Source: a virus (lineage: Duplodnaviria; Heunggongvirae; Uroviricota; Caudoviricetes). From it: DNA of 7,425 nucleotides. Below are positions 4,322-4,405 of this stretch, piece after piece. The translations under genes and the position numbers were made by a program. The notes under the pieces were generated by a model, which was not told the DNA's origin, made no database searches, and saw nothing but the letters and a program-made list of their open reading frames with translations. How positions within the stretch are numbered: position 1 is the stretch's first letter; each line of letters opens with the position of its first letter. Location: IMG/VR virus record IMGVR_UViG_2690316131_000009; one strand, written 5' to 3'.

Positions 4322-4405
4322 TTATCCCCAGCGGCAAATCGAATACACCACCAGCGCCACCGCCATCGCAATTCCTACCGTTGTGAATGCTTCAGGCCAG
4401 GTCAT
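4322..4405 (-). CDS. Putative 27-aa hydrophobic micropeptide (not in the ORF track)
   Basis: Minus-strand ATG at 4405..4403 overlaps the TGA of the upstream 114-aa gene (ATGA). GGAGGA lies 9 nt upstream. Translation [27 protein letters not shown], stop TAA at 4324..4322, then the terminator. One predicted transmembrane helix. Confidence 0.35.

Follow-up and report, generated by a model that had tools for sequence, protein, structure and literature searches.

A selection-maintained 27-codon gene for a predicted membrane micropeptide in the early accessory regions of lambdoid phages

The window, a 7,425-nt stretch of DNA from a tailed-phage record of IMG/VR (IMGVR_UViG_2690316131_000009), carries a very short open reading frame (ORF) directly behind a 114-aa gene, followed by a hairpin and by a convergently oriented parDE pair (Table 1). 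The short frame is read from 4405 to 4322 on the minus strand (ATG ACC TGG ... GGA TAA), and its ATG (4405-4403) is the first start after an in-frame stop, so the ORF has exactly 27 codons. A first-pass annotation, made from the letters alone, had proposed an unlisted hydrophobic 27-aa micropeptide here, with an ATGA start/stop overlap and a GGAGGA upstream. The position proved right, the TGA of the 114-aa ORF indeed overlaps the ATG, and the GGAGGA lies 9 nt before the start, a rather long spacing (9-10 nt), within the codons for V-E-D near the end of the upstream gene. A Pfam scan of the 114-aa upstream protein returned no match, and its N-terminus resembles that of K-12 YfdT. Further upstream on the minus strand, the mechanical call gives an HNH endonuclease ORF of 151 aa from a TTG start (4743-5198), which PGAP, in a near-identical O26 prophage, begins at an internal ATG (121 aa). 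This ORF and the start of the 114-aa gene share 4 nt, which suggests another coupled junction within the same operon.

Table 1. Coordinates of the features at the micropeptide locus (positions of the window)
Feature	Coordinates	Strand	Description
27-codon micropeptide gene	4322..4405	minus	TAA stop 4324-4322; predicted N-out/C-in transmembrane helix, residues ~6-24
ATGA start/stop overlap	4402..4405	minus	upstream-gene TGA (4404-4402) overlaps micropeptide ATG
Shine-Dalgarno GGAGGA	4415..4420	minus	within the last codons (V-E-D) of the upstream gene
Upstream 114-aa gene	4402..4746	minus	coupling partner; mosaic Ea22/EaA-like accessory protein; PHROG 660
Hairpin, stem ~12 bp	4278..4311		10 nt after the micropeptide stop
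parD	3634-3891	plus	Pfam ParD_antitoxin
parE	3897-4196	plus	Pfam ParE_toxin

The peptide has a single hydrophobic stretch that is, by GRAVY, long enough to span a membrane: residues 6-24 score 2.1 in the window, and the value is at least 1.7 in all 48 peptide variants. M1, W3, P4, E/D5, A6, G11, A15, A17, Y/F21, I23, C24, R25, and W26 are nearly invariant, and exchanges at the variable positions occur solely among I, V, L, M, F, A, and T. The helix presents two small-xxx-small faces (G11/A15 and A13/A17), which are typical of helix-helix packing. Charged residues are limited to E5, close to the N-terminus, and R25, close to the C-terminus, and the positive-inside rule, which is established knowledge, predicts from them an N-out/C-in orientation. 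We regard a transmembrane peptide as quite likely. Searches of Pfam, PHROG, and NCBIfam with the window peptide and 19 variants returned no significant model. Sub-threshold composition matches were obtained with DUF883_C (a glycine zipper; 14 bits against a cutoff of 27), KdpF (TIGR02115; 14.7 bits against 26.85), T4SS_pilin, phrog_4612, and phrog_38566. Several other identities were considered and set aside. A lipoprotein was rejected because YSIC is not a lipobox and cleavage there would leave a mature part of 3 residues. A leader or attenuator peptide was rejected because the downstream genes differ between loci, and a holin or lysis-cassette membrane protein because the gene lies in the P-RusA/Q-like or xis-int region and no holin PHROG was matched.

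At 99.7% identity, the window region matches lambdoid prophages of E. coli O26:H11, O103:H2, and others, as well as phage ArgO145. The genes of O26 strain 11368 run, in order, from replication protein P through DUF1627, DUF977, DUF4406, an ead/Ea22-like pseudogene, DUF4014, and the HNH endonuclease to the 114-aa hypothetical gene and the micropeptide; after the hairpin come parDE, encoded on the other strand, and then DUF968, RusA, and DUF1133. The micropeptide gene thus sits here between replication gene P and the RusA/Q-like region, and in other phages it is found near xis-int. The first-pass annotation had pointed to conservation in related prophages as a check, and the ORF proved to be widespread. 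A blastn search located the 84-nt cassette 3110 times, spread over 1634 of the 5426 complete E. coli genomes (~30%), with up to 7 copies per genome and 163 copies on plasmids. With tblastn, the peptide was recovered from 94 phage records at 59-100% amino acid identity, including 933W, VT2-Sakai, VT1-Sakai, BP-4795, Min27, the P1-like SJ46, and POCJ13. In a species-dereplicated genome scan, the core 27-aa family was confined to Escherichia and Shigella, apart from two tiny contigs assigned to Xanthomonas pisi (L139, 431 nt) and Acinetobacter idrijaensis (L144, 369 nt). A record of Actinobacillus phage vB_Apl-pPE4 (PP818812.1) also holds an E. coli-type cassette at 97.8% DNA identity. These three copies probably reflect contamination or mis-assignment instead of true host range.

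The suggestion that a gene of this size is routinely missed was borne out. RefSeq/PGAP has no CDS for the 27-aa ORF in the 99.7%-identical O26:H11 prophage, and it was unannotated in every phage or genome record inspected; the exact peptide is present in NCBI nr, where a few GenBank submissions, e.g., AOM45384.1, name it "hypothetical protein" or "bacteriophage protein". A full-text literature search did not find the peptide sequence, the supplements of PMC11188072 ("Cryptic Bacterial Microproteome") did not contain it, and no mention of such an ORF was found in the exo-xis, nin-region, and Ea22 literature. Some partial peptide-frame ORFs (e.g., GGESMTWPEAF...) are named "DUF551 domain-containing protein, partial" in NCBI, a label that is carried over from the upstream gene. 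The peptide was also grouped with full-length DUF551 proteins in 90% clusters (P0012, P0018, P0019); those proteins lack the peptide, and the grouping was rejected as a clustering or partial-ORF artefact. A C-terminal extension of DUF551/Ea22-like proteins was likewise rejected, as the peptide occupies a separate frame in ~175 of the 176 loci listed, with a single fusion (L018), and full-length DUF551 proteins end in ...PPQEVNQ without it. Lambda has no homolog after ea22. In K-12, yfdT of the CPS-53 prophage (L210, 5874-6190) begins with MTTFT...EIALVSLEVEP, like the 114-aa gene of the window, and ends in ...QQEVK and a stop with an SD-like GAGGTG remnant (GAGGTGAAATAATAG). The micropeptide cassette is missing after this junction, which explains why small-protein surveys of K-12 did not find it.

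The borders of the cassette emerged from a comparison of loci with different neighbors. Among eleven phage loci compared, nine carried an ORF of exactly 27 codons; the P1-like SJ46 allele has 24 codons, and in POCJ13 codon 3 is changed from TGG to TAG. In all eleven, the ATGA start lies on the stop of the preceding gene, although these genes vary and include 933W L0139, DUF551, Ea22- and EaA-like proteins, and the 114-aa gene of the window. An identical 84-nt allele was found behind a window-type gene (...ISVEDILR, stop) and behind DUF551 genes (...EPPQEVNQ, stop), whose DNA is unrelated right up to the ATGA; overall, the upstream C-termini fall into several unrelated classes. Homology between contexts breaks exactly at the micropeptide start and stop codons. 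On the downstream side, 165 IMG/VR copies with both flanks, counted among the matches listed, were followed by hok/sok (~56 copies), by an ORF4-ORF3-xis-int block (~38), by the hairpin and parDE of the window (~12), or by other hairpins or genes (the remainder). In gene order, the cassette is the last cistron of strings of early accessory genes.

The first-pass annotation had described the structure after the stop codon as a bidirectional terminator, and this held in part. A hairpin is present, folding at -19.6 kcal/mol on the minus strand (z about -2.5), and the 134-nt plus-strand stretch that contains it folds at -35.4 kcal/mol (z about -2.5). When the plus strand is read, a canonical T-run (4309-4314) comes directly after the stem, which makes the hairpin first of all the parE terminator; its minus-strand tail, GAUUUAUAUA, is weak. 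The hairpin is thus a canonical intrinsic terminator for the convergent parDE pair and a weak one for the micropeptide operon. A simple terminator scan of the window did not list it because its loop is 10 nt long. The parDE pair, together with its own terminator, has been inserted convergently directly after the micropeptide stop codon, and nin-region prophages otherwise syntenic with the window (including L147 and L149) carry hokD exactly at the place of parDE. The swap of the two modules at one site indicates that the junction after the stop is an insertion point for toxin-antitoxin (TA) morons and that the terminator belongs to the parDE insertion and not to the micropeptide cassette. In 933W, hokW/sokW occupies the same spot, and the junction looks like a hotspot for the insertion of TA morons. 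Between the parE stop and the terminator, a sigma-70-like site was seen on the plus strand (4200-4227; TTTACC, 16-nt spacer, TAGAAT, with a TG), which could yield a short plus-strand RNA of ~80 nt that terminates at the hairpin; such sites are no more numerous in this region than in shuffled sequences.

To avoid circularity, two IMG/VR samples were drawn, one anchored only on the first 20 nt of the cassette and the other only on the last 20 nt. In the N-anchored sample, 130 of the 133 matches listed were hydrophobic ORFs of 20-29 aa, and 120 were exactly 27 aa long; in the C-anchored sample, 109 of the 119 matches listed were intact 27-codon ORFs with an ATGA start. Across both, about 92-95% of the copies listed were intact. 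The ten C-anchored exceptions included two alleles with a GTG start behind a TAA, two distinct in-frame deletions of 6 nt, an amber allele, an allele lacking 1 nt (also present in a complete genome, L147), and two stop-loss extensions. Pseudogene copies amount to ~3-5%, which indicates that the micropeptide is dispensable. As separate observations, the TGG-to-TAG change at codon 3 was seen in L010 (Shigella phage POCJ13) and L153, a 1-nt deletion in codon 2 recurs in L147, L160, and L170, and a frameshift in L018 fuses the upstream gene in frame to the micropeptide.

Substitution patterns revealed purifying selection on the small ORF across diverged loci. Among 76 unique intact alleles, pN/pS was 0.35 in the micropeptide frame (pS 0.33; pN 0.11), against about 1.0 and 1.8-2.0 in the other two sense frames, and pairwise differences at codon positions 1, 2, and 3 averaged 4.0, 2.7, and 8.6. 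The antisense frame that shares its wobble positions with the micropeptide comes out at a similar ratio (0.35-0.40), with no stop in 51 of the 52 alleles, so dN/dS alone cannot choose the strand; that ratio is an expected artefact, and the strand was assigned from the start, the stop, the SD, and the hydrophobicity. Frameshifts, premature stops, or unconserved synonymous sites in homologous loci had been named beforehand as observations that would speak against the gene, and with most copies intact and length changes kept in frame, it came through this comparison. The micropeptide is a genuine, selection-maintained gene in a discrete 84-nt cassette, and the proposal of a conserved coding micropeptide with one hydrophobic helix is upheld.

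The proposed coupling to the upstream gene is likewise well reflected in the C-anchored sample, in which the ATGA overlap was kept in 112 of the 119 copies listed, across unrelated upstream genes, and a 5-nt SD core no more than 22 nt from the start was also present in 112 of 119. The SD spacing is 6 nt behind DUF551-type upstream genes (cAGGAGGtgaatcaATG) and 10 nt in the window type. The SD is spelled by ...E-V... or ...V-E-D... codons, on which upstream proteins that are unrelated to one another have converged. Both marks of termination-reinitiation coupling, a stop/start overlap and an SD inside the upstream gene, are thus found at the locus. Folding the RNA around the SD gave no stability beyond that of shuffled sequence (z +0.52), which points to coupling via the stop/start overlap and not via the unmasking of a hairpin. 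From these conserved initiation signals we infer that the micropeptide is translated, and we consider it very likely that the ORF is a real translated gene. The peptide string was not found in the supplements of two Ribo-seq papers on EHEC (PMC4765031, PMC5597208), whose cultures were not phage-induced; this absence carries limited weight because uninduced cultures keep early phage operons repressed.

Our preferred explanation, which we consider reasonably probable, is a translationally coupled, N-out/C-in inner-membrane micropeptide that modulates a partner through helix packing. In this scheme, a self-contained 84-nt cassette travels among lambdoid (and P1-like) phages of Escherichia and Shigella and would be transcribed as the last cistron in a string of early accessory "ea/nin-region" genes. 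Ribosomes ending at the upstream UGA would reinitiate on the overlapping AUG (AUGA), assisted by the SD within the last codons of the upstream gene. The product is predicted to insert with its acidic W-P-E cap in the periplasm and R25 at the cytoplasmic face, an arrangement that would make it a miniature protein of the Pf3-coat type. During infection or induction, it would probably act by helix-helix packing on a host or phage membrane protein, with the invariant small-residue face (G11, A15, A17) and the conserved interfacial ends (WPEAF and YSICRWG) as the putative contact surfaces. The micropeptide would then be a small-protein modulator and not a free-standing pore or toxin, a choice for which the balance tips slightly toward the modulator.

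The other possibility raised at first reading, a membrane-damaging toxin, is the best surviving alternative and appears unlikely. Such a peptide, either type I-like or acting in abortive infection, lysis timing, or host killing, would depolarize or permeabilize the inner membrane. In size and hydrophobicity, the micropeptide is similar to Hok/Gef, TisB, DinQ, ShoB, Ibs, and Ldr, it is often prophage-borne, and many small hydrophobic peptides are toxic on overexpression. TA modules often adjoin it, with hok/sok in about one third of the loci listed and parDE in the window; these, however, are separate insertions that begin past the micropeptide stop. No match to Hok/Gef (Pfam) or any other toxin family was obtained, and Rfam returned nothing in the window at E up to 1. 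Neither flank of the cassette is related from one context to another, and hence a conserved partner RNA does not travel with it. Neither an antisense RNA nor an own promoter with a structured, translation-blocking leader, as in type I toxins, was found; instead, the start overlaps the upstream stop, and translation appears coupled and SD-driven, not repressed. In a delayed-early operon, moreover, loss of the proton-motive force would cut phage yield. The toxin reading is ranked lower because the type I hallmarks are absent and because depolarization would be costly at that stage, and the suggestion found no evidence here.

A special case of the modulator, somewhat less probable than the toxin, is a factor in phage competition or defense that would block the entry of superinfecting DNA or counter a membrane-bound host defense. 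The gene sits among dispensable early accessory genes and is multi-copy in poly-lysogenic EHEC genomes, and the lambdoid early accessory region is rich in host-takeover and anti-defense functions. Against this, there are no PHROG or Pfam matches, and the gene lies inside repressor-controlled early operons, so the micropeptide would not be made in a quiescent lysogen.

Readings in which the 27-codon frame is not a free-standing gene fare far worse. The 84 nt could be a conserved recombination linker between mosaic modules with an incidental ORF, as its location coincides exactly with the junctions of modules and many phages have very similar DNA in common. This reading is disfavored and very improbable: the synonymous divergence (pS 0.33-0.38) and the pN/pS of 0.35 speak against it, alleles with amino acid identity down to 59% retain length, start, stop, and hydrophobicity, most length changes are in frame, and relatives with unrelated DNA retain the architecture of the peptide. 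More improbable again is a C-terminal membrane anchor that programmed -1 frameshifting or read-through would attach to the upstream protein. The peptide is indeed encoded in the -1 frame with respect to the upstream gene, a natural in-frame fusion occurs in one of ~176 loci listed (the L018 allele), and some partial database proteins in the peptide frame are labeled DUF551; however, no slippery heptamer precedes the ATGA in any upstream class, the GTG-start alleles follow a TAA without overlap, the upstream genes are unrelated to one another, and the SD and AUG, which frameshifting does not require, are conserved. A real feature on the other strand, either an antisense ORF or an RNA, is the least probable of all, since of the plus-strand ORFs that overlap the gene (4292..4450, 52 aa; 4383..4652, 89 aa) the 52-aa frame has a pN/pS of 1.26 and is interrupted by stops in 14 of the 52 alleles, the wobble-sharing frame, open as it is in nearly all alleles, has no start codon in the cassette and would need one in flanks that vary with context, and Rfam gave no match.

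Beyond the core family, more distant peptides with an MxWPEAF start probably exist in other phages. Among pattern matches that are not close in DNA, 13 of the 27 distinct ORFs listed encode hydrophobic peptides of 23-36 aa, against a background rate of 0.5% for ATG-started ORFs on the same contigs (P about 1e-23). These relatives combine an M-x-W-P-(E/D)-A-(F/I) cap with a hydrophobic helix and a C-terminus that is usually basic or charged, and they come from contigs of 30-66% GC (L115, L112, L049, L056, L026, L242, L239, L249, and others). One of them, MNWPDAFLYVGIAWAFAYAITRI, lies behind an Ea22-DUF551 gene; another, MSWPEAFFGAVFIICVAWVYVTAIKDKDD, adjoins xis-int on a contig with 59% GC; a third, MNWPEAIFGIIIAIVIAWVLVTIIKN, is from a contig with 30% GC. 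On several GC-rich contigs, a longer ORF on the same strand overlaps the candidate, which makes individual wider members uncertain. The candidates are nearly always stop/start-coupled to the preceding gene, and a superfamily may be defined by the MxWP(E/D)A(F/I) cap, a single transmembrane helix, and a short C-terminus that is usually basic, within a total of 23-36 aa. It is a speculative idea, though one worth stating, that the E. coli peptide belongs, as the most abundant member, to a much wider superfamily of phage micropeptides, so far undescribed. If this is true, retention of the five-residue periplasmic cap in different hosts would suggest that the bacterial inner membrane offers a specific, conserved target or route of insertion, with the YidC insertase, FtsH/HflKC, or a membrane-bound defense effector as candidates, and such a protein would be an early-infection target of many unrelated phages.

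The micropeptide is a very common, newly described family of small phage membrane proteins, with its gene in about 30% of complete E. coli genomes, often in several copies, as well as in 933W, VT1-Sakai, and VT2-Sakai. It adds a predicted membrane component to the accessory early genes of the Ea22/DUF551 type, a block with influence on the choice of Stx phages between lysis and lysogeny. The case also illustrates cleanly that ORFs of fewer than 30 codons at mosaic junctions need comparative and not length-based calling.

Several known systems share parts of this picture. Lambda CIII, Kil, Orf60a/61/63/73, and Ea22 occupy the same early-operon accessory neighborhood and belong to the same expression class, and the upstream partners of the micropeptide are themselves proteins of the Ea22/EaA/DUF551 type. 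[quoted passage not shown] The CIII, Kil, exo-xis, and Ea22 proteins are soluble or amphipathic and are annotated, whereas the micropeptide is a predicted integral-membrane 27-mer that is absent from lambda. In its short acidic N-tail, single helix, basic C-terminal end, and lack of a signal peptide, it is like proteins of the Pf3 coat type. This likeness predicts the same topology and insertion via YidC and the proton-motive force. The micropeptide is nevertheless not a virion protein and has no sequence similarity to the Pf3 coat, and the likeness in topology is a predicted one. With respect to the proposed mode of action, it can be compared with KdpF, AcrZ, MgtS, MgrB, CydX, and MgtR, which it resembles in having one hydrophobic helix with very short termini; these proteins of 25-50 aa escaped annotators for years, and each works by packing on a larger membrane protein. 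It has no sequence relationship to them and lies in a phage early operon, not beside a host transporter or sensor gene; its small-xxx-small face (G11/A15, A13/A17) can be likened to the packing faces of regulatory membrane proteins. A catalogue of predicted small phage ORFs was reportedly assembled by Fremin et al. in 2022. The micropeptide is of the same kind as the entries of small-ORF catalogues (Fremin et al. 2022; PMC11188072), a hydrophobic small ORF under purifying selection that was recognized through comparative genomics.
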